Assembly: GCA_963787835.1 (NCBI GenBank)
Contig: CAWBEI010000003.1
Coordinates: 439,586-503,585 of the forward strand
Direction of reading: 5' to 3'
Length of the DNA stretch: 64,000 bases
Source of the DNA: Ignavibacteriota bacterium
GTDB lineage: Bacteria > Bacteroidota > Ignavibacteria > Palsa-1295
Shown here: one piece after another, positions 5,194 to 62,480 of the stretch
Layout: the number at the start of each line of letters is the position of its first letter
Position numbering within the stretch: the first letter of the stretch is position 1
Program-made: the position numbers and the translations under genes
The notes under the pieces: model-generated
Database searches by the model: none
The model's input: only the letters and a program-made list of their open reading frames with translations
Told to the model about the DNA's origin: nothing

Positions 5194-6117
5194 TCAAACG
5201 TGGTAGCCAAGTTCCGAAAGCGCTCGCTTATTCTGGCGCCAATCGGATTTGGTTTTTACGTGAAGTTCGAGATAAACAGGATGTCCGAGAAACCGTTCGA
5301 TCTCCTCCCGGGCACGCTCACCCAGCGATTTCAACGCCGAACCATCGCGCCCTATAAGAATAGATTTTTGCGTGTCGCGCTCGACGATCACTTCGGCGCT
5401 TACGAACCACTTCCCGGCCGCTCGCTCTTTGAATTCGGAGATCGCTACTTCGGTAGAATACGGAATTTCTTCCTTAAACTTTTGAAAGATTGCCTCGCGT
5501 ATAAGCTCACCCACAAAGAACCGGTCGTTCTGGTCGCTTAATTGCTCTGGATCATAGAACGGCTCAGTGCTGGGAAGGTAGTTACGGAGCGTTGCGATCA
5601 ACTCCTTTATGTTATAGTTTTTTGCCGCCGAGATCGGAACAAGCTCTTTGAATTCCGGCTGTTCCCCATAGCGTTGTAAAATGGGAAGCAGATCGTTCCT
5701 GTTTTTCAATAGATCGCTTTTAGAGATAGCAAGCACGATGGGCTTCTCCCCCGCGATCTTTTTATAATCGTTCCAAAGCCCCGGTAATGCACGTTCGAAC
5801 GGCTGGTGGGCCTCGGCAAGCACAAGAATGACGTCCGCGTCTGCGAACGACCGCTGCACTTCCGCGAGCATCGCCTTATGGAGCAAAGTGGTCGGACGCG
5901 GCATGATGCCGGGTGTATCGAGGAAAACGATCTGCTCCTGCGGAGTAGAATAGATCCCAAGCACGCGTTTGCGCGTTGTTTGCGGCTTGCGTGTCACGAT
6001 CGAAAGCTTCGTGCCAAGCATCGCATTCATCAGCGTGGACTTACCGGCATTCGGCACTCCCACGATCGCACAATATCCGGACTTGAACCCGGTTTCTCCC
6101 GATTGGTCAGTTGTCAT
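5194..6117 (-). CDS. era: GTPase Era
   Basis: GVPNAGKST, KPQTTR, DTPG, ELIRE, EEIPYS, C-terminal KH domain. Confidence 0.97.
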   Translation of the reverse strand: MTTDQSGETGFKSGYCAIVGVPNAGKSTLMNAMLGTKLSIVTRKPQTTRKRVLGIYSTPQEQIVFLDTPGIMPRPTTLLHKAMLAEVQRSFADADVILVLAEAHQPFERALPGLWNDYKKIAGEKPIVLAISKSDLLKNRNDLLPILQRYGEQPEFKELVPISAAKNYNIKELIATLRNYLPSTEPFYDPEQLSDQNDRFFVGELIREAIFQKFKEEIPYSTEVAISEFKERAAGKWFVSAEVIVERDTQKSILIGRDGSALKSLGERAREEIERFLGHPVYLELHVKTKSDWRQNKRALSELGYHV

Positions 6118-7354
6118 TTTTCATTAAAGTAACCGTGCGTTGCTGCATGTTTGCCATTGCTTGTTCGGGAGTCTCGGTCTTATAAAGTGCCTTGGAAACT
6201 TCATCTTCGATGATCGCTTCTACATCGAGCCACTGCGGAATAACGGGCGTCATTCGCGCATGGGCGAGCTGTTCGGTGAATACCGCACCCTCGCGCCGAT
6301 GAAGGTAAAATGTATCTGACTGAGTCCTGACATCGGCAGGATATTCGTTCACATTCCGGGCAAATGCAAGCTCGTTAGTGGGTCGTGTAATATACTCCAG
6401 AAACAACTCCGCCTCATGCTTCATTACGCTCTTTGCGTTAATAGCCAGATATTCACCACCAGCAAACGATTCACCGGAATGCCCGTTGTTCCCCGGAAAC
6501 ACAGCCGTATGCCATTGGAACGTTGCCTTTGAAAGCCTCGGGATCAGCCACGATCCGCTGAACCACATTCCCAGCTTCCCGCGCACAAAGTCATCGTCAA
6601 GATCCTTCTGCGTTTCCATGACACCACACTCCAATTGACCGATATAGAAACGCAGTGCTTCAACGTTTTGAGGTGTGTTCATCATGGGTTGGCCCAAACT
6701 ATCGAAAAGATCGCCGCCATTCGACCAAACATACGGGAGGAATTTTTTGTAAAGCCGGTGCTGATCTGATCCATTTACGCCAATGCCCTGCATGCCAATT
6801 TTTTCAGCAATAGATTTCATTGTTTGCCAGTTCCATGCATTCGTTCCATTGGACGGAGTGGACATAGTGGCGGAGGTTGTAATAAGATCATCATTAATAA
6901 AAATAACGCGTGTATCGAGCAGCCAGGGCACTGCAAAATAATGACCACCCCACATTCCTGAACTGAGAGCATATTTTGGCGAGGCTGCGAACCGCGACAT
7001 GATAGCAGAGTCAGCATCAAGCGGCAGGAGCACGCCACTGGAGGAAAACTGCGCAACCCAATCGCTGCCAAGTTCAAGGACATCCGGTGCCGTCTCGGAA
7101 TTAAATCCGGCCATAAGTTTGGTTTTGCCGTCCGCCCAGCTAAGCTCTGTCACTTCTACGGGGATATCCGGATGCTCGCGATGAAATCCGGCAAGCAGAG
7201 AATCCATAGCAATTCGCTGTGCCGGTTCCGACCAGAAATGCGAGAATCGAAGCACACCGGGTGTGATACCACGATCGCATCCCATAATGCTTATTACTAT
7301 GACGCAAAAGAAGAAACCGCAGAACGAAACGCGCTTCAGGAAGCTCAGTGTCAT
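6107..7354 (-). CDS. Extracellular sugar-binding lipoprotein (ABC SBP family 1)
   Basis: Likely start ATG 7354; lipobox-like IMGC; APDVLELGSDWVAQF, VPWLLDTRVIF, SFAGGEYLAI. Confidence 0.88.
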   Translation of the reverse strand: MTLSFLKRVSFCGFFFCVIVISIMGCDRGITPGVLRFSHFWSEPAQRIAMDSLLAGFHREHPDIPVEVTELSWADGKTKLMAGFNSETAPDVLELGSDWVAQFSSSGVLLPLDADSAIMSRFAASPKYALSSGMWGGHYFAVPWLLDTRVIFINDDLITTSATMSTPSNGTNAWNWQTMKSIAEKIGMQGIGVNGSDQHRLYKKFLPYVWSNGGDLFDSLGQPMMNTPQNVEALRFYIGQLECGVMETQKDLDDDFVRGKLGMWFSGSWLIPRLSKATFQWHTAVFPGNNGHSGESFAGGEYLAINAKSVMKHEAELFLEYITRPTNELAFARNVNEYPADVRTQSDTFYLHRREGAVFTEQLAHARMTPVIPQWLDVEAIIEDEVSKALYKTETPEQAMANMQQRTVTLMKNDN

Positions 7355-7358
7355 CGAT

Positions 7359-7889
7359 CTATTTCGTTGTGAACGAGATAAAACTGATGAGCGCGGTAAT
7401 AATGACCATGATATTCGTGATAACGCCAATGGCCTGAAAGAAGACATCCAACGCACGCCCGCTTACCATAATGGTATCGCCGGGTTCGAGCAAGGGGTTT
7501 TGGGAAAGATCGCCGTTATCGCGATAGGCTTCAAGATTGTAGGTTTCAACACGCTTTTCGGAGGCGGTATCAGCATGGATGATCCGAATATCGACCAAAC
7601 GAGCCGATGCCGTTGGGCCGCCCGCAAAGCTAAGCAGTTCCACCAATGACGTCGATCCCGGAACACGGTAATGCCCCGGCGCACCGACATATCCCCATAA
7701 ATTAACATCGATCTGAACCTCACCCCCGCGCATGACGCTATAGATCGCCATATTAGGCGTAGTGGGATTGAGCGGCTGGCTGGCTCCCGGCCCAGTCTGG
7801 CCTGGGATAGCCGGCGGGCCTTGTGCAACTGCGGCGCCTTCCGCAGAAAGTACCAAAAATAAGGCGATGATTATGTTGGAAAATCTCAT
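7359..7889 (-). CDS. SLBB-domain (Wza-like) protein
   Basis: Signal peptide from ATG 7889; VNLWGYVGAPGHYRVP-LVELLSFAGGP, NPLLEPGDTIMV; C-terminal hydrophobic helix. Confidence 0.82.
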   Translation of the reverse strand: MRFSNIIIALFLVLSAEGAAVAQGPPAIPGQTGPGASQPLNPTTPNMAIYSVMRGGEVQIDVNLWGYVGAPGHYRVPGSTSLVELLSFAGGPTASARLVDIRIIHADTASEKRVETYNLEAYRDNGDLSQNPLLEPGDTIMVSGRALDVFFQAIGVITNIMVIITALISFISFTTK

Positions 7890-7935: not shown

Positions 7936-8706
7936 TCACGGTTCTACAGTAAACCCCAACCAGGTCGAAGTGGAGCCGCCAAACGGTTCGATCCATTTTA
8001 CACGCCACTGATACGGTACTCCAGACACAAGCGGCGTCGCGCTCATGGGATATTGGATGGTTTCTGTGTTTTCGAAATCCTGGTCGCTGCCGGACCACAC
8101 ATATTGTAAATTATCAAGTCGCTGAACAATGATCTGGTAACTTCCACCATCGTTCGGATCTTGCCACAATAGTTGGAGTGGGAACCCGTGCAGGGTATCG
8201 GTCCCATTCGGACTGAGAACCAGTATGCGCTGCGCATATGTAAAAGATGTCGAAATTCCAACATGCGTCGGATGACTATACGTAACAGCGTTGGTTGGGG
8301 AACGATAAAATGCCTGAAGCTGGTAATAATACGTCGCGCCGGGCGTAATCCCCAACGTGTCAGAATAGGAAGTATCCAATGGTGAAATGAGCTGATTGCT
8401 GCTTTCTATATCTGCGATCGTCGTGCGATGCGCGAGCAGTCCGTCGGAGCCGACACTCGAATCGCCAACGGAACGATAAAGAAGATACCCGGTCGTAGTG
8501 CCCGTTGAGTCGGGTTTCCATTCAATATCGATCGCATTCTGAGGGCCCGCATCTGCGTAAATGCCGTGATCCACTGGATCAGGTGGCGAGGTATTCGGAA
8601 CGAAAACTGGCGGCGGCGGCGTGACCACCGGTTCAGGGGGCGCGCTACACGCTGCAAGCATCACGGCGACCAGTGCAATGCCACATTTCCGGTTCCTGTT
8701 ATTCAC
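7936..8706 (-). CDS. Lipoprotein with FN3/Ig-like domains
   Basis: Lipobox LAAC, Pro-rich linker, FN3-like GYLLYRS...YYYQLQA and PYQWRV. Confidence 0.75.
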   Translation of the reverse strand: MNNRNRKCGIALVAVMLAACSAPPEPVVTPPPPVFVPNTSPPDPVDHGIYADAGPQNAIDIEWKPDSTGTTTGYLLYRSVGDSSVGSDGLLAHRTTIADIESSNQLISPLDTSYSDTLGITPGATYYYQLQAFYRSPTNAVTYSHPTHVGISTSFTYAQRILVLSPNGTDTLHGFPLQLLWQDPNDGGSYQIIVQRLDNLQYVWSGSDQDFENTETIQYPMSATPLVSGVPYQWRVKWIEPFGGSTSTWLGFTVEP

Positions 8707-9877
8707 TCGTTGAATCCTTCTTCATAAGATTATCGAGATCTGCGGAAAAGCTCAAACGGTTCTCCGGCCCGAGTGCATTATTGATCGAGAGCGAGTAATT
8801 GATGTCGATCTTATGCTCCCAATTATAACCTGCTCCGGTCGTGAACTCCCCCTGATCGAGGCCGAGCCGAAGCGAGATGTTCTTTTCGTAGGTCATCTCC
8901 AAACCGAAGCGTGGCAACGCCCGTTCATTCATCAGGTAGTCTGTGGAAAATGTAGCGACAGACTGAATGGCTGGAATCGGCTGGGCATACGCGATCCCGC
9001 CATTGACCTGCATGGGAATGATCTCAGTTCGCTGGGTACTCCAGGCGAGTTGTGTTCCCGCAATATCGGTGACCGAAACACCTAAGGAAACCTTACCAAG
9101 CGCGGGATTCAACAAAAATTCCGCGAGAGAAAACCGGAGCATCGCACCACCATCGACTCCAATGGCATTCGCCGTGCCAAAACTCCCGATCGCCTGATGA
9201 ATGACCTTGAAATTAATTCCAATGGGTACTTCGATCTGTTCTTTGTAATAGAGCCAGCCCCAGTCCAGCGTAAATTTATTATCCCGCGCGATCGATAGCA
9301 CGATGGCATCCTCATTATCGCTGAAATAATTCGGAGCGCCGTCATATATTTCCTCGACGAGTTGCGCGCGTTCATCGGTAACACTGACATTAGTAAGATC
9401 CGGCGTTTGATTGAGATCGCCGACGGAAAGCCGCACCCAGTTCAAAGCCAGCGTCATATCCTTCATTGGATAAGTAAACCCAAGCTGATAAAAGTTTGCA
9501 AGTGAGTTCCCAGGTGTTCCATATTCAGCGGAATACATAAACCCAAAGAGCTGATCCGGAATTAACGAAACGCCCGCAGGATTCCAGTGAAATGCGGACT
9601 CATCATTCGCAATGGCAGTATAAGCGCCGCCCATCCCGAGTGCGCGTGACCCGACCGGGATCCGAAGAAATTCCCCGGCATAAAGATCCTGAGCATGCGA
9701 CGAAGAAACACTCCCGACGAGCAAGGTCATTGCGAGAAGGATTTCGAAGCGAAGCGACGAAATCCGACGAAGCAATCTCTTCGGGGAAGGATATTGCTTC
9801 GTCGAACAAATCTCCCTCTGGTCGATTCGTTCTCCTCGCAATGACAATATATATATATGCCTATCGAACACGCGCAA
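8699..9877 (-). CDS. PorV/PorQ-family outer-membrane beta-barrel (T9SS shuttle-like); start uncertain
   Basis: EFLRIPVGSRALGMGGAYTAIANDESAFHWNPAG; lies directly after a C25 peptidase; N-terminus overlaps a palindromic repeat. Confidence 0.85.
   Translation of the reverse strand: MRVFDRHIYILSLRGERIDQREICSTKQYPSPKRLLRRISSLRFEILLAMTLLVGSVSSSHAQDLYAGEFLRIPVGSRALGMGGAYTAIANDESAFHWNPAGVSLIPDQLFGFMYSAEYGTPGNSLANFYQLGFTYPMKDMTLALNWVRLSVGDLNQTPDLTNVSVTDERAQLVEEIYDGAPNYFSDNEDAIVLSIARDNKFTLDWGWLYYKEQIEVPIGINFKVIHQAIGSFGTANAIGVDGGAMLRFSLAEFLLNPALGKVSLGVSVTDIAGTQLAWSTQRTEIIPMQVNGGIAYAQPIPAIQSVATFSTDYLMNERALPRFGLEMTYEKNISLRLGLDQGEFTTGAGYNWEHKIDINYSLSINNALGPENRLSFSADLDNLMKKDSTSE
9726..9845. repeat. Four-way-junction palindromic repeat, copy 1
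   Basis: GTCATTGCGAG...GACGAAGCAAT...ATTGCTTCGTC...CTCGCAATGAC, shared with 22057-22182 and 62363-62480. Confidence 0.92.
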
Positions 9878-12800
9878 ATTTTCCTTTTACCTCTTGTGTC
9901 GATGATGACGTATTGACCGTCAGTCTGTAAAAATACACTCCATTGGCGACCTCCGCACCACCGTCATCCAGACCATTCCACCATACCTCATGATAGCCGA
10001 TGCTGGTCGGCGTTCCGGTACCGCCCTGCAAAAAGCCGAAGGTTCGCGTTGGATCGGTGGATGGGTAACTCATCGTACGGATACGCCTCCCGCTAACAGT
10101 ATAAATATCGAGACTCACCGATTGTGCGTACGCAATACCGCTGATCTGATAGGCAATGAACATTTGCACCCCAGTGAACGGATTTGGGAACGAACCAAGT
10201 ACGACCACCCCGAACTGATTCGATACATGGACATCCAGTTCTTTCGCCGGAGCATTCGTTTGTCCGTTATTATCCGTCGCCTGAATAGTGATGGTATGGT
10301 TACCGCTCGAAAGCGATGGCTGCATCGTGAGATTTAATGTGGTCTGCGTTCGGCTCGAATCCAGCATGACATACTGCGATGGCTGAAGCGCGCGGTTATC
10401 GATCTTCACGATCGTTTTTCCCGGCGTAATGTCGATACCATTGGCATCCTGAATGATCGCATCGAGTTTCGGCTGTGGAGGAACTTCGCCGTTATTGATG
10501 AACACCTGCCCTTCGACCGTAATATCCACGATAGGTGGAACCTTATCCGTATTATACGCAATCGCGAACGTGCCGAGATTGGTGATCGAAGCAGTCAACT
10601 GATTTGGCGAAGGACGTGACGTGGAAAGAATGGTCCATAGTTTTGATCGGTCGTCCAGGCGATAAATAAAAAGGCTGTCGTTGCTATGGAGCTTAATAAG
10701 CGAATCGTTCAGATTCAAGGTTACGGTAAGTGTCGAAGGACCAAACCTCGAAGTAGTAAGCGCGATGGCACCAAGTGAATCGCTCACAATGCGAAGGCTT
10801 GAATAGCGCACTTTCTTGTCCGTGTACATGGGCAGGAAGTGAATATCCGGCTGGGCGGTTTGCGCTGGAGTATAAACTCGGGCTACGCGAATGACATCGG
10901 CACCGATATTCCCTTCCGCACCAGGTTGCAGACCCAGGACAACCTCACCATTGTTGAAGACCGCAGGTGTTGTGGATACTCCATCCGATGTCGTTCCCAC
11001 GGCGGAAAGATAGGCAACAGCGCCAGGCGCAAAAGCGAGAGGCAGCGTGGTATCGTTGGTTGTGATACTATCTCGTAGATTAAGTGGGCCAATGCCCGCT
11101 TCCGGAGTAATTGCAAACGCCAGTGTGGACGAATCGAGCGAGGTGATCACAAGTGGGATACTCACCAAGGTATCACTGTGTGAAGCAATTTCACTTACAG
11201 AGGTGCTTCCAAGTAACTGTGGCGCACCGGATCGCATATTCAACAGCGAGGCCATCGCCGAACTCACTGGAGATGACCCCCAATTGTACACAAATTCGTT
11301 CCATACCAGCCCGTTTTTCGTCGATGCGTATTTGCCACTAACCGAACGGTGGTACAGATCTTTATCCGCCGAAGGATCGCTGGCCGCTCCAACAATAATA
11401 TAAATTGAATCCGAGGTAATATTATCGCTGCCCGGCAATCAGAGAAACGGTGGCCACGACTTTATTTCCCGCACTTATCGTGCTGGCCGGAATGACGACG
11501 TGATACCGATCCGAGATCGGCAGCATCGTCATCGGAGGTAACGCATTCGCTGTGACCACCCCGTTTGCACTTTGCGAATAGATCGTGATATTCGCTGTCA
11601 CGCTTGTGATCGGCTGTGGGGTCTGGATTGCCGCGCTGAAATCCAGCGGCAGGCCCACCGGCAAGGGATGTGGCTCAAAATCCAACTCGGTTATTCGGGA
11701 ATTAGTAATGGTTATATCTTCTGCGGTAGCAGCAAACTGGTTCGTCGATTTATCATACACAATAGCACGGTACGTTCCGTACGGCATGGTAACGATCGGA
11801 ACATTATCGGTCAGCGTAAACGCACCACCCGTGACGGGGATATTGTCTATACTATGCACCGGTGATAGCGGGCTGAGGACATCGTTGGCAAGTTCGATAC
11901 GCGCCACGCCACTCTTGATCGTGGTTGTGCCTGTTAGCTGCACCGTCCCCGAAGGCTGAAGGACACGGCTGGAAAGCGTAAGCCCAACTCTATCCGTCGG
12001 ATAATTTGGCGATAGCAATGGATCACCCAAAAAATGGTAGCAATAGACGAGCGTCGGAGGGATAAGATCGCCAGAAAGCGCCTCGGAAAGAAAATCCATC
12101 TTGGCGTCGATGATGCGCTCGGCCATCGTTCCACCGACGGAATCATAGATGCGTGGAACAACCGCTTCTGCAAGACGGGCATCATTTTGCTCCCATCCAA
12201 AACTTGTGGTTCCCAACGCTGCGATCGAGCCGGCACTTGCAATATTTTGTAGGCTATTGAGTATCCCAGTGTTCGGACCATCGTATGTTGCGGTAAAGCA
12301 GGTCATGCTCAGAACGAGTGGATACCGTGCATTATTATTGAAGCCCGTTACCTGGGGATTTGACAGGAACGGCGGACCGCTGGTGTCATTGACGGGATCA
12401 TCCCAAATATCTGCGCCGCCATGGCCGAAATAGGCGATCAGTCCTAGCCCATTGTTGACATTATCAAATACGGTTTCTTGGGTTCCATGATAAGGTGACG
12501 CGGGAACTGTCGATTGACGCAGCACACTGACACGTTCCGGAAGCGCACCCTGCAAAATTCTACCGATGCCAGTATCGAAACTTCCACCGGCTCCAATAAA
12601 GAGCGCGCGGTCTTTCCAGTCTCCGGGAATCGCGGGATCGGATTCAAATTGTTTGAGCTTAGTGATATACGCCGCATCGCCGCTAATGTTCGAAGTTGCA
12701 AGACGGCCCAGAACCAGATCCGGCACAAGGTCATTGCTATCGAGCATGGAATACCATGCATCGGCAGCGACATCCCCTTCGATATAAGCCTGAATATAGG

Positions 12801-15123
12801 GCGCGGGAACCTGATCGTTTGGGAAATATTCTTCCGAATCGTCCGTGCCTTCGTGCGTTACCCCGACAAGCAGCACATATTTGGGAGGATCTTGCCAATT
12901 ATTATAGGCATACGTTAAAAATGATTTGATCGCATTTGCGGATGGACTCCCATAATGAAATTCATCATAGATATTTGCAACATCGATGAGCTGAGTGGTC
13001 ACATGGTTCGTGCTGGCGCGGTAACTTAGCAGATCCTGCAGCGGAACATGTGCGTTGTTATTCCCTTTCGGAAGATGGTCGCGATTTGTGATGACGATAT
13101 ACTCGCCAGAGTTCGATGGCGAGGCAAGGCCGGCAAAATTGTCCTTCTCATACTTGTAAGGCTTGAGCTTGCCGGAATCCGTGACAGCGAAAAACTCGTC
13201 GGCTGCACTGGTAATATTAACCTGAAAGATCGCCTGCGTACTACGCTCCTGCTTGGGATTAGAAACGAAGACAACATTGGATATCTTCGAAATCCCCTTC
13301 CGATAAATGGAAATATCGGTGCGATCGAAATTTTGCAGCGTAAATTGATACAGTCCTGCGGTGCTGTATTGCGGCGCATGAAAGGTGATCGTGTCCTGAT
13401 AGGCATAATACCTGCGATTATATCCGATCTCGATCCAATTGAACGCGAATCGGCAACTTTGAACCGGTGTCTGCTTTTGCTGCGCGACTGTGATCGCGAT
13501 CGGTGGAAGTCCTCCGCTGGTATCTGCCGGATTAACGCCCAACAACTGCGCGGATGGAATATAGGAGACAAGCTGCGATGCCGTGTCGGTCGACAGGAAC
13601 TTCAAGTTCTGACCGCTCCAGACGCCGTGCAGCACTGCTTGCTGATTGACCGAGATCAACGCATCTTCTTCGCTATCGACATACGGAAGGGGGTTACCTT
13701 TCTCATCGGTCGCGCCCTGCACATAATCATCGATACCATGCAGCGCGACCCGAAAAGAAACTGGCCGGTTTTGCCGCACATCCGGGTACGGCACAATGGT
13801 ACTTGCCGTGTAACTCGAAGGATATGTTCCACCCGTCGAAACGATTCCCATAAACCAGTGATCTCGCAGATCGGAACGCTGATCGATATCCGTGACATCG
13901 AGCGGGTCAGAAATGTTATCTTGCTCGAAGTGTATCTTGGTCGCGAATGAGCTATCCTTCAGATCGACATAAAAACTGTTGCGCGGATAAGGCGACCGGT
14001 TAGCCGTTCGGATTTCACCCGATTCCTCCGCCAACCGCTTTACTCCCGTCACTGGGATCGGTGAATAATGACTTCCCCACACGAGGAAATAAATATTGTT
14101 TTTTGTGTCCGGGTCGTAATAAAAATCCCCAAGCGTATCTGGCCCGTTATACCGCTCCTTGTTGCCAAAGAACTCGAAATAATCATCCGAATGAAAATGG
14201 CCATCCTGATAAATATCGGAAACATAGACGGCAACTTGCTGCCCTTTATTAATGACCCGCAAGGTTGCTGGATCGATCTGCGAAGGATCGATCCCAAAAT
14301 GTTGGAGATCGCTAAAAGTGATATGATAAATACCGCTCTGGCGGACGTACATCCGATAGACATTTCCATCGTCAGACTGAATGCCGGGAAGTTGCTGAAC
14401 ATCCCCGACCGACAGTGTTTGCATGCCTTTAGACTGGCCACGACTCGCAGCAAGACGCGATCTAAACACTCCGTTCGATACTTTGAACGGCTCATTTAAG
14501 TCTGTGACCGGTAGTGATGAAAGCCCCGACGGATCGGTAATTTGGACAATGATCTTTTTCGCCGCGCGAATAGTGGACGAACCGGATCTATCCAGAATTC
14601 CCAGTTCGAGTCGCGAAATATCAGCCGCCCGCATCGTTCCCATAAAGGTAAGCCCAGCATAGCCGATTCCGTGGTGCTCACTGGATATCGGCTTCGGTCG
14701 GTGAACCGACGCTCCCGGCTTCCCATTACTCGCAACATCCTCGATTAGTGTGCTGGTGAGGTCAAGTTTATTTGCCGTTGTGTTCACATCGTTATGCGAA
14801 AGGATCGTTACACTTGCATGGCGAGAAACCCGGAGCGGGATCGCGATCGAAGCTAAGGCATCGCCGCCCTGAACTTGTCCGGAAATTCGGCGAACGCGAA
14901 GCACCTTTTGAAAGGTATCGAACGTGGGTGAAGGGAGCGTGACTTCAATCGTTACCGTGTTCCCCGATCGTTTCAATTCCCGTACCTTAACACCTCCTGG
15001 AAGATGAGCGCGAGAGGACACCGCGAATAGCAGGATGCTAATCGCGCAAGCAAACCCGATGCATCGTTTGGGATGCAGACATCGAAGGCGATTCGAATGG
15101 CGCATGGAGCGCGGCCAGAGCAT
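9861..15123 (-). CDS. PorU-like C25 (gingipain-family) cysteine peptidase with a C-terminal sorting domain; one gene split by a +1 frameshift near 11432
   Basis: ORF 11422-15123 has IYDEFHYG, PKYVLLVG, YFGHGG (His), SMTCFT (Cys), FLGDP. ORF 9861-11438 continues it (DKVPPIVD, FPNPF, ANGVYFYRL). Removing one G at 11431-11433 fuses them into ~1753 aa. Confidence 0.85.
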
Positions 15124-22056: not shown

Positions 22057-22182
22057 GTCATTGCGAGGAGAGCATTCGAAGCAGAGCGGTGAATGCTCGA
22101 CGAAGCAATCTCTATCCTACGGGATAGAGATTGCTTCGTCGAACGAATCTCCCTTCGGTCGATTCGTTCTCCTCGCAATGAC
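22057..22182. repeat. Four-way-junction palindromic repeat, copy 2
   Basis: GTCATTGCGAGGA outer stem with three internal hairpins; intergenic between the two permease genes. Confidence 0.92.
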
Positions 22183-62362: not shown

Positions 62363-62480
62363 GTCATTGCGAGGAATCCCGGAGGGATGACGAAGCAATC
62401 CGTTGAGATTCTGCTTAATCTTGGGCGATTGCTTCGTCGAGTTTGACTCTCTTCGGTCGTCAAACTCTCCTCGCAATGAC
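62363..62480. repeat. Four-way-junction palindromic repeat, copy 3
   Basis: GTCATTGCGAGGA...TCCTCGCAATGAC with a GACGAAGCAATC/GATTGCTTCGTC arm; starts 3 nt after the aspS stop. Confidence 0.92.

Follow-up and report, generated by a model that had tools for sequence, protein, structure and literature searches.

Introduction

In Yersinia, the RU-2/YPAL MITE forms part of the signal peptide predicted for YPO1552 (Delihas 2007, PMC2759123; PMC2229807; PMC3184786, each in its accessible part). CGTC-tagged REP dimers, a family that includes Rickettsia RPE-4 and RPE-6, have been reported in Chlorobi and Bacteroidetes; the accessible text of that account suspects the copies at N-termini of being mis-annotated and draws no link to signal peptides (Di Nocera 2013, PMC3733652), and the peptides LLAMT, LAMT, SLRG and VIAR are absent from the accessible supplementary text of the same paper. 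A third system, that of the Ssn nucleases, pairs small single-domain GIY-YIG proteins with NTS/SRM repeats (Chenal 2025, PMC11893778, main points as accessible). As far as the accessible portions of these papers go, CGTC REP dimers, N-terminal overlaps and a MITE within a predicted signal are already known. Our search of the literature returned no study of repeats that systematically fill signal peptides or serially replace them; subscription papers and supplements may bear on this point.

Here we examine a 64,000-nucleotide stretch of an Ignavibacteriota genome (the window, whose coordinates are used throughout; the source genome is called G000), in which a palindromic repeat of the CGTC type lies across the 5′ part of a porV-like gene. 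The lineage is Kapaibacterium-like, one gene of G000 being 77% identical to a gene on a contig that carries this label. Comparison with orthologous loci makes it probable that this repeat is translated within a 62-aa export signal that starts at TTG 9877, where it would have replaced the front of an older signal.

Results

The gene in question is porV/porQ-like (8699..9877, minus strand; 392 codons from TTG 9877), and its frame, as a sequence-only reading of the window had claimed, is uninterrupted from 9877 to 8699 across the entire repeat. The predicted mature outer-membrane beta-barrel begins at a Gln at position 9691 on the minus strand. The product scored 88.3 bits with profile NF033709, for which the cut-off is 90, and fell far under the equivalog cut-offs for PorV, PorQ and PorV2. 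A PDB search with a profile of 28 homologues returned PorV as its sole match, and an AlphaFold model (pLDDT 83.8) had the PorV structures 8gl6_F and 6h3i_F as its best Foldseek matches (E 2e-9, TM 0.66-0.69). The solved PorV structures are 13-14% identical to the product, which has in common with the PorV/PorQ family (NF033709; 6h3i_F, 8gl6_F) its fold and its sequence family and which, here, has a porU-like neighbor. By frame, profile and model, the predicted product is a PorV-like outer-membrane barrel. Barrels of this kind require a Sec signal, and the product therefore needs a signal peptide.

A 95.6%-identical contig of run X1 crosses the repeat region, differs by substitutions only and keeps the repeat in frame, and a contig of run X5 matches positions 9824-9999 exactly, so the repeat at porV is not an assembly artefact. 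The same two contigs ruled out a hidden upstream ATG lost through a sequencing slip in the AT run. RNA run X6 yielded one contig over 9682-9969, which proves neither transcription nor the start.

The gene upstream is porU-like (C25 sortase; 9861..15123, minus strand), as judged from frame, profile, runs and relatives. Its frame is interrupted in the window by one extra base at 11431 (11422-11438). That base is missing from contigs of runs X1, X3 and X6, and in five of six relatives the gene is a single open frame of 1700+ codons, the frame of the sixth being cut by the end of the fetched stretch. A genuine split of porU is ruled out by these contigs and by the unsplit relatives; the interruption at 11431 is a one-base assembly error. 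A programmed frameshift fusion of porU and porV was also considered, and was set aside because the signal peptide lies between the two and because orthologues with a closed frame own an ATG. Two other genes in the window, an ABC substrate-binding gene (6107-7456, minus strand) and the porU-like part 11422-15123 (minus strand), have a long basic stretch before their hydrophobic cores.

Sequence, folding and comparison of genome copies define the repeat at porV as a 120-nt palindromic element (9726..9845, not assigned to a strand), composed of two inverted half-units with 11-nt terminal inverted repeats. It folds into three hairpins (-80.1 kcal/mol and z -6.16 for 9726-9845), and the 3′ arm of the central hairpin (9766..9803, minus strand) includes a TTG at 9775-9773. 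Two further copies lie in the window, likewise without strand: one (22057..22182) precedes an ABC permease gene equipped with an ATG of its own, and the other (62363..62480) overlaps no long ORF. G000 holds 61 paired copies and 11 unpaired exact ends. The repeat ends in GTCATTGCGAG, and most ends are preceded by T or C, giving the CGTC/TGTC tag of the CGTC-tagged REP dimers; like these, the 61 paired copies are inverted dimers, dispersed and mostly intergenic. The minimal form is short (C4:76316), and most halves carry an inserted hairpin; in the CGTC-tagged REP dimers (CGTC-1 to -4), the stem is 8-9 bp and the loop 4-5 nt.

No target-site duplication of the kind expected of a MITE was found, the flanks being identical in 3, 1, 0 and 0 of 61 copies at 2, 3, 4 and 5 nt. 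An Rfam search gave three weak matches below gathering scores, which we judged to be chance; RPE protein and RNA models from NCBIfam, Pfam and Rfam did not match the repeat at E values up to 10, and five repeat-encoded peptides compared with Pfam and NCBIfam matched neither RPE nor any other real family. Copy length is divisible by three in 32 of the 61 G000 copies, 126 nt is the commonest length, and most copies are intergenic. Exact paired copies range from 4 to 44 among close species (G002 versus G009, G005 and G014), and the family therefore appears to grow and shrink fast.

Of 122 copy orientations, 62 have an open frame that leaves the repeat through LLAMT, so that read-through without a stop is not in itself remarkable. 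An ATG is formed at the 5′ edge in 32 of 122 copy ends, and the flanks are 71% A+T in a genome of 50%, start regions being similarly AT-rich. The peptide encoded by the repeat has a net positive charge by default, signal copies carrying no additional charge, and a search for selection on this charge found none. With its open LLAMT frame, basic peptide, edge ATGs and AT-rich flanks, the repeat is, on its sequence, predisposed to a signal role.

Understanding how the repeat could be translated requires a choice among several start codons. Shine-Dalgarno motifs are rare in G000 (GGAGG at 2.7% and AGGAG at 2.5% of 438 unambiguous starts), the DNA upstream is G-poor and the starts are AT-rich; Bacteroidetes are likewise reported to make little use of such motifs (PMC6728339, accessible part). 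Since Shine-Dalgarno motifs are hardly used, the accessibility of the start should matter. Opening energies, computed over positions -15 to +12 of each candidate, were 7.7 kcal/mol for TTG 9877, 8.5 for GTG 9871, 14.6 for TTG 9847, 21.6 for ATG 9730 and 24.3 for TTG 9775. The first three of these, all in frame and upstream of the repeat or at its edge, had been overlooked by the sequence-only reading. On the evidence of orthologues and opening energy we favor TTG 9877 (9875..9877, minus strand), which is formed from the Phe-Ala codons at the end of porU, with a 17-nt overlap of the two genes.

Among 20 porV loci examined, L011 is without the start region and L020 lies outside the family, which leaves 18 for comparison. 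Although the TTG and the mature Gln are anywhere from 81 to 216 nt apart, this spacing is divisible by three in 16 of the 18, the exceptions being L010 and L015, of which L015 looks frameshifted; the frame from the TTG position is open in 13. An in-frame ATG is missing altogether from three loci (L002, L005 and L019), and in L006 the sole in-frame ATG stands just two codons before the cut. Conversely, every intact locus with a closed or shifted frame (L003, L007, L010 and L012) owns an ATG, and L007 has lost the start TTG. The Phe that overlaps the start is encoded by TTT in 16 of 17 rows, compared with 80 of 182 at eleven other Phe columns, figures for which p-values and tests overstate, as orthologues are kin and not independent. 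The either-or pattern of an open TTG frame or an ATG of the gene's own is hard to obtain by chance as read from these alignments, and we infer that translation probably reinitiates at TTG 9877, giving a 62-aa signal of which residues 11-51 would be repeat-encoded. The coupling to porU that had been proposed from the window alone would then be likely by way of the overlapping TTG 9877, and the hairpin may in addition control translation.

A start at the 5′ edge of the repeat, at TTG 9847 (9845..9847, minus strand), or at GTG 9871 would mean that the repeat brings the start or lies next to it; the repeat would still be translated and supply half of the core, with a looser coupling to porU. TTG 9847 follows an AT-only run and stands where 32 of 122 copy ends have an ATG, other fused genes (L012 and C5:118368) start at the repeat's 5′ edge, and the opening energies of the two codons (14.6 and 8.5 kcal/mol, respectively) also speak for them. 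Neither codon is conserved in orthologues, however, whereas TTG 9877 is conserved and shows the codon bias, and we regard initiation at either as unlikely.

It is also conceivable that the repeat is mostly 5′ untranslated and that translation begins at ATG 9730 (9728..9730, minus strand), inside the 3′ terminal repeat, with the stem opened by ribosomes or a nuclease. As the sequence-only reading correctly noted, this is the sole in-frame ATG before the mature Gln and would yield a 13-aa leader without charged residues. In a tilS-like gene (L127, G009:C11:134263-134383) and a membrane-protein gene (L107, G005:C7:27565-27678) of relatives, the start is apparently the equivalent ATG at the repeat's 3′ terminus; that ATG can therefore probably be used, which counts against a start at TTG 9877. 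Many N-terminal REPs have, moreover, been argued to be non-coding (Di Nocera 2013, PMC3733652, accessible text). Nevertheless, 13 residues are fewer than in the signal of any repeat-free orthologue seen (the shortest, in L020, has 17), the ATG costs 21.6 kcal/mol to open, and the conservation of the frame to TTG 9877 would be left unexplained. A rule that placed starts at the ATG of the repeat end would also give lipoproteins 10-aa leaders despite a basic in-frame ATG start upstream, and the lipoprotein genes of G000, G014, G009 and G001 clearly have such a start ahead of the repeat. We consider ATG 9730 a distinctly unlikely start.

The start proposed from the window alone, TTG 9775 inside the repeat, does encode the 28-aa leader described there, with basic, hydrophobic and SHA regions. 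Its layout is the textbook basic/hydrophobic/AxA at ordinary length, and repeat-internal starts seem to be present in Afipia. The codon, however, is base-paired within the central stem, and no other candidate is less accessible (24.3 kcal/mol); it has no counterpart in orthologues that carry other repeats, and its presence is uninformative because this TTG belongs to the repeat consensus. Orthologues favor TTG 9877 instead, and initiation at TTG 9775 appears very unlikely.

Read from TTG 9877, the predicted Sec signal (9692..9877, minus strand; from sequence and orthologues) comprises ten residues of flank, the repeat at residues 11-51 and flank again at 52-62. Its predicted h-region of 12 codons (9707..9742, minus strand) takes its first six, ILLAMT, from the repeat's 3′ end, and the predicted SPase I site is Ser-His-Ala followed by Gln (9689..9700, minus strand). 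Inspection and our heuristic identified the features of a Sec/SPase I signal: a net charge of +5 in the repeat part, an uncharged run of 17 and the S-H-A/Q junction. Orthologues have an equivalent A/Q or G/Q junction, in keeping with the N-terminal Gln rule after signal cutting (PMC5837995, accessible part).

Repeat-free orthologues have ordinary signals of 17-30 aa. In 23 repeat-free orthologues from four gene families, the median length of the uncharged stretch ahead of the cut is 17 residues, whereas 8-14 residues (median 11) are left after the repeat in 12 repeat-bearing orthologues; in all four intact porV cases exactly 11 residues follow the repeat, with four large hydrophobics, or eight when the repeat end is included. 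The difference between 11 and 17 indicates that LLAMT replaces the lost front half of the core. It is very likely, on these comparisons, that most of the predicted export signal's n-region, together with half of its h-region, comes from the repeat, and the earlier proposal that the n-region and part of the h-region are repeat-encoded is borne out to that extent. Since the repeat-free orthologues already possess ordinary signals, the repeat would have displaced the front of an existing signal and created none.

Could the signal-like look be the leftover of an insertion that silenced or crippled porV? A structure of -80 kcal/mol located 30 nt past a weak start could stall translation. Against this, the mature protein is intact and 70-91% identical within the genus, the repeat is in frame in the 95.6%-identical relative, and the four intact repeat-bearing orthologues share the 11-residue register, all of which make such damage hardly credible.

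A scan of G000 for LLAMT and SLRG peptides, which the sequence-only reading had proposed, placed 8 of the 61 repeat copies in predicted signal peptides, namely porV and seven others; signals were called by a home-made heuristic that over-calls (607 of 2040 genes, 30%) together with inspection by eye. Seven of the eight exit in the LLAMT frame and one in the other open frame, and two are lipoproteins. Nine copies are fused to genes that lack an ATG of their own farther downstream, and eight of these genes have predicted signals, against the 30% background; a further five copies whose frame continues into a long ORF were excluded on inspection because the gene had its own ATG or was spurious. 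None of the 61 copies is located mid-protein, in-frame fusions being confined to N-termini. The one fusion without a signal places a copy in frame at the N-terminus of a cytoplasmic protein (G000:C2:1474270-1474389), which we take, from its sequence type, to be PaaD-like.

It is the sequence after the repeat that goes beyond chance: an uncharged hydrophobic 8-mer follows in 9 of 10 signal-assigned copies and in 3 of 133 other open copies, a comparison in which the former were picked by eye on that trait and five more copies were set aside. When all repeat families were counted, 18 of 607 signal-like genes had repeat DNA within the 22 codons that precede the cut, a few of these being short chance matches; for mature controls the figure was 2 of 607. 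A narrower test, restricted to the 22 codons after the last ATG, showed a smaller enrichment, 13 of 562 versus 11 of 1184 (p 0.027). Several of the 11 non-signal genes look like missed signals.

In five relatives, 77 copies were examined out of 142 exact matches, and in 12 of the 77 the LLAMT frame continues without a stop into a long ORF. Inspection by eye classed eight of these 12 as signal-bearing, three of the eight being orthologues of genes already counted; one was classed as a membrane protein and three as cytoplasmic or spurious. The lipoprotein signals L061 and L065 hold shrunken remnants of the repeat (in L061 the ends are joined and the middle is gone), which suggests from their sequences that the repeat decays after capture. 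Other repeat families also occur in predicted G000 signals: a second CGTC family that ends in LRMT, GTAG-like palindromes and heptamer arrays, with sites at C4 ~318330 (minus strand) and at C2 ~1259843, ~1257097 and ~653803 (plus strand). The T-rich strand of the heptamer arrays codes for hydrophobic runs, and G000 contains 367 period-7 tandem arrays (TRF, low threshold), far above periods 6 or 8.

Within the genus, inspection by eye assigned the CGTC repeat to the porV loci L001, L008, L011, L012 and L015, GTAG-type palindromes to L002, L004 and L013, and heptamer arrays to L003, L005, L010 and L014; L006 and L009 are repeat-free and L007 is not clear-cut. The loci from other genera (L016-L020) have, by the same inspection, no repeat. 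An automatic classifier found repeats in 9 of the 20 porV loci and missed L011, L013 and L014. Sister pairs differ in repeat class (L001/L002, L003/L004 and L012/L013; SH-aLRT 95-100), and, with L011, L020 and L021 left out, a single clade of the four carriers of the CGTC repeat was rejected (p-AU 3e-58). Repeat class at porV changes at least 8 times among 17 rows. A single inherited insertion was rejected as a full account, the carriers not forming one clade; an ancestral copy followed by repeated replacement may fit as well as repeated gain. That sister species carry unrelated repeats at the porV site speaks against any special role for the CGTC palindrome. Orthologues of three other repeat-bearing genes, families chosen because G000 has a repeat there, contain repeats in 10 of 15, 5 of 14 and 4 of 14 cases, versus 0 of 63 mature controls. 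The presence of unrelated repeats at the porV site in relatives suggests that export signals are a recurring entry place for mobile repeats.

Beyond the genus, a GTDB scan for repeat ends with four hydrophobic-type codons behind them found at least 119 loci. Among the 121 matches listed, 27 run into an ORF of at least 80 codons, and about 12 look signal-like by eye, including matches from Ca. Villigracilis, Afipia, a Rhodospirillales genome and an Omnitrophota genome; because the pattern itself selects hydrophobic codons and the scan had no control, these are examples and not a rate. In Afipia (L235 and L242) the start apparently lies inside the repeat, and L242, from Afipia broomeae, is an LLAMT case. 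On a Gammaproteobacteria contig (L257), the repeat end with its hydrophobic codons is tandemly tripled before a dehydrogenase-like gene.

A candidate for the mobilizing enzyme is encoded at L033, a single-domain GIY-YIG gene (98-121 aa, PF01541 over cut-off) with inverted half-copies of the CGTC repeat on both sides, which is the layout of Ssn nucleases of under 150 aa with their SRMs. Three further small GIY-YIG genes (L031, L034 and L035) are flanked by other CGTC-type families, each different. NCBIfam gave only weak matches to group I intron endonucleases for the L033 protein, and the published SRM pattern was found in 0 of 61 copies and, with one substitution allowed, in 0 of 122 ends. L033 and its repeats resemble the Ssn-SRM layout, and by analogy the nuclease may mobilize the repeat. 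The four GIY-YIG genes lie in G000:C2 at 1.22-1.47 Mb, as if there were one nuclease per repeat family, and the half-copy before L033 offers the nuclease an in-frame ATG.

Discussion

We propose that ribosomes ending porU would restart 17 bases back at TTG 9877 and read through the hairpins. The repeat would yield a long, net-basic n-region, the LLAMT at its end would form the front half of the hydrophobic core, and the whole 62-residue leader would be removed at the Ala/Gln junction after Sec export. The repeat may have inserted into an AT-rich start region whose gene was already equipped with a signal; such an insertion could be tolerated because the signal is discarded, and the repeat would have become necessary after loss of the ancestral front half of the core. 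With unrelated repeats in sister species, and other envelope genes alike, the porV site appears to be a recurrent target, and the likely spreader would be the small GIY-YIG nuclease flanked by half-copies.

A broader proposition, which could equally prove right or wrong, is that short mobile repeats get into bacterial proteins mainly by way of signal peptides. In this lineage, the front half of a signal would be a replaceable slot, repeatedly overwritten by nuclease-linked palindromes, GTAG REPs and heptamer arrays and kept translated by a conserved upstream start; the LLAMT end of the repeat family would also serve as a ready-made hydrophobic core in Alphaproteobacteria, Chloroflexota and Omnitrophota. 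Signal peptides change quickly, and where they come from is difficult to establish. If the proposition is true, it would explain part of this fast, unalignable evolution, and many envelope genes would have mis-called starts. At porV, the front half of one signal appears to have been swapped among selfish repeats in sister species, with empty sites available for comparison, making visible a simple path by which a tolerated passenger could become a required component. For annotators, repeats at the N-termini of envelope genes need not be mis-annotation. Three questions become open to experiment: whether Sec accepts repeat-derived signals of 50-70 aa, whether ribosomes read through hairpins of -80 kcal/mol shortly after a weak coupled start, and whether Ssn-type nucleases place repeats at start regions.

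The porV repeat resembles the CGTC REP dimers, with which, according to the accessible account, it has in common (C/T)GTC ends, inverted dimers, structured spacers and tens of copies (PMC3733652). As in those dimers, most copies are intergenic and some lie at N-termini (PMC3733652, accessible text), but the porV repeat differs in the extra hairpin inserted in each half. In-frame insertion into proteins is common to RPEs and to the repeat described here; RPEs, however, are also found mid-protein, whereas the repeat occurs at N-termini only. The Ssn system likewise features a GIY-YIG gene flanked on both sides by a hairpin repeat, as at L033, although its published SRM pattern is unlike the porV repeat (0 of 61 copies) and the accessible account of it is without coding insertions (PMC11893778). 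The Yersinia RU-2/YPAL element was described, in the accessible text, from a few small hypothetical ORFs and read as the birth of new proteins (PMC2759123; Delihas 2008, PMC2229807). In contrast, the present case involves a conserved barrel of the T9SS type and seven other genes, a single predicted signal that three classes of repeat appear to have overwritten in different sister species, and an upstream start, conserved among orthologues, that would account for read-through of the repeat.
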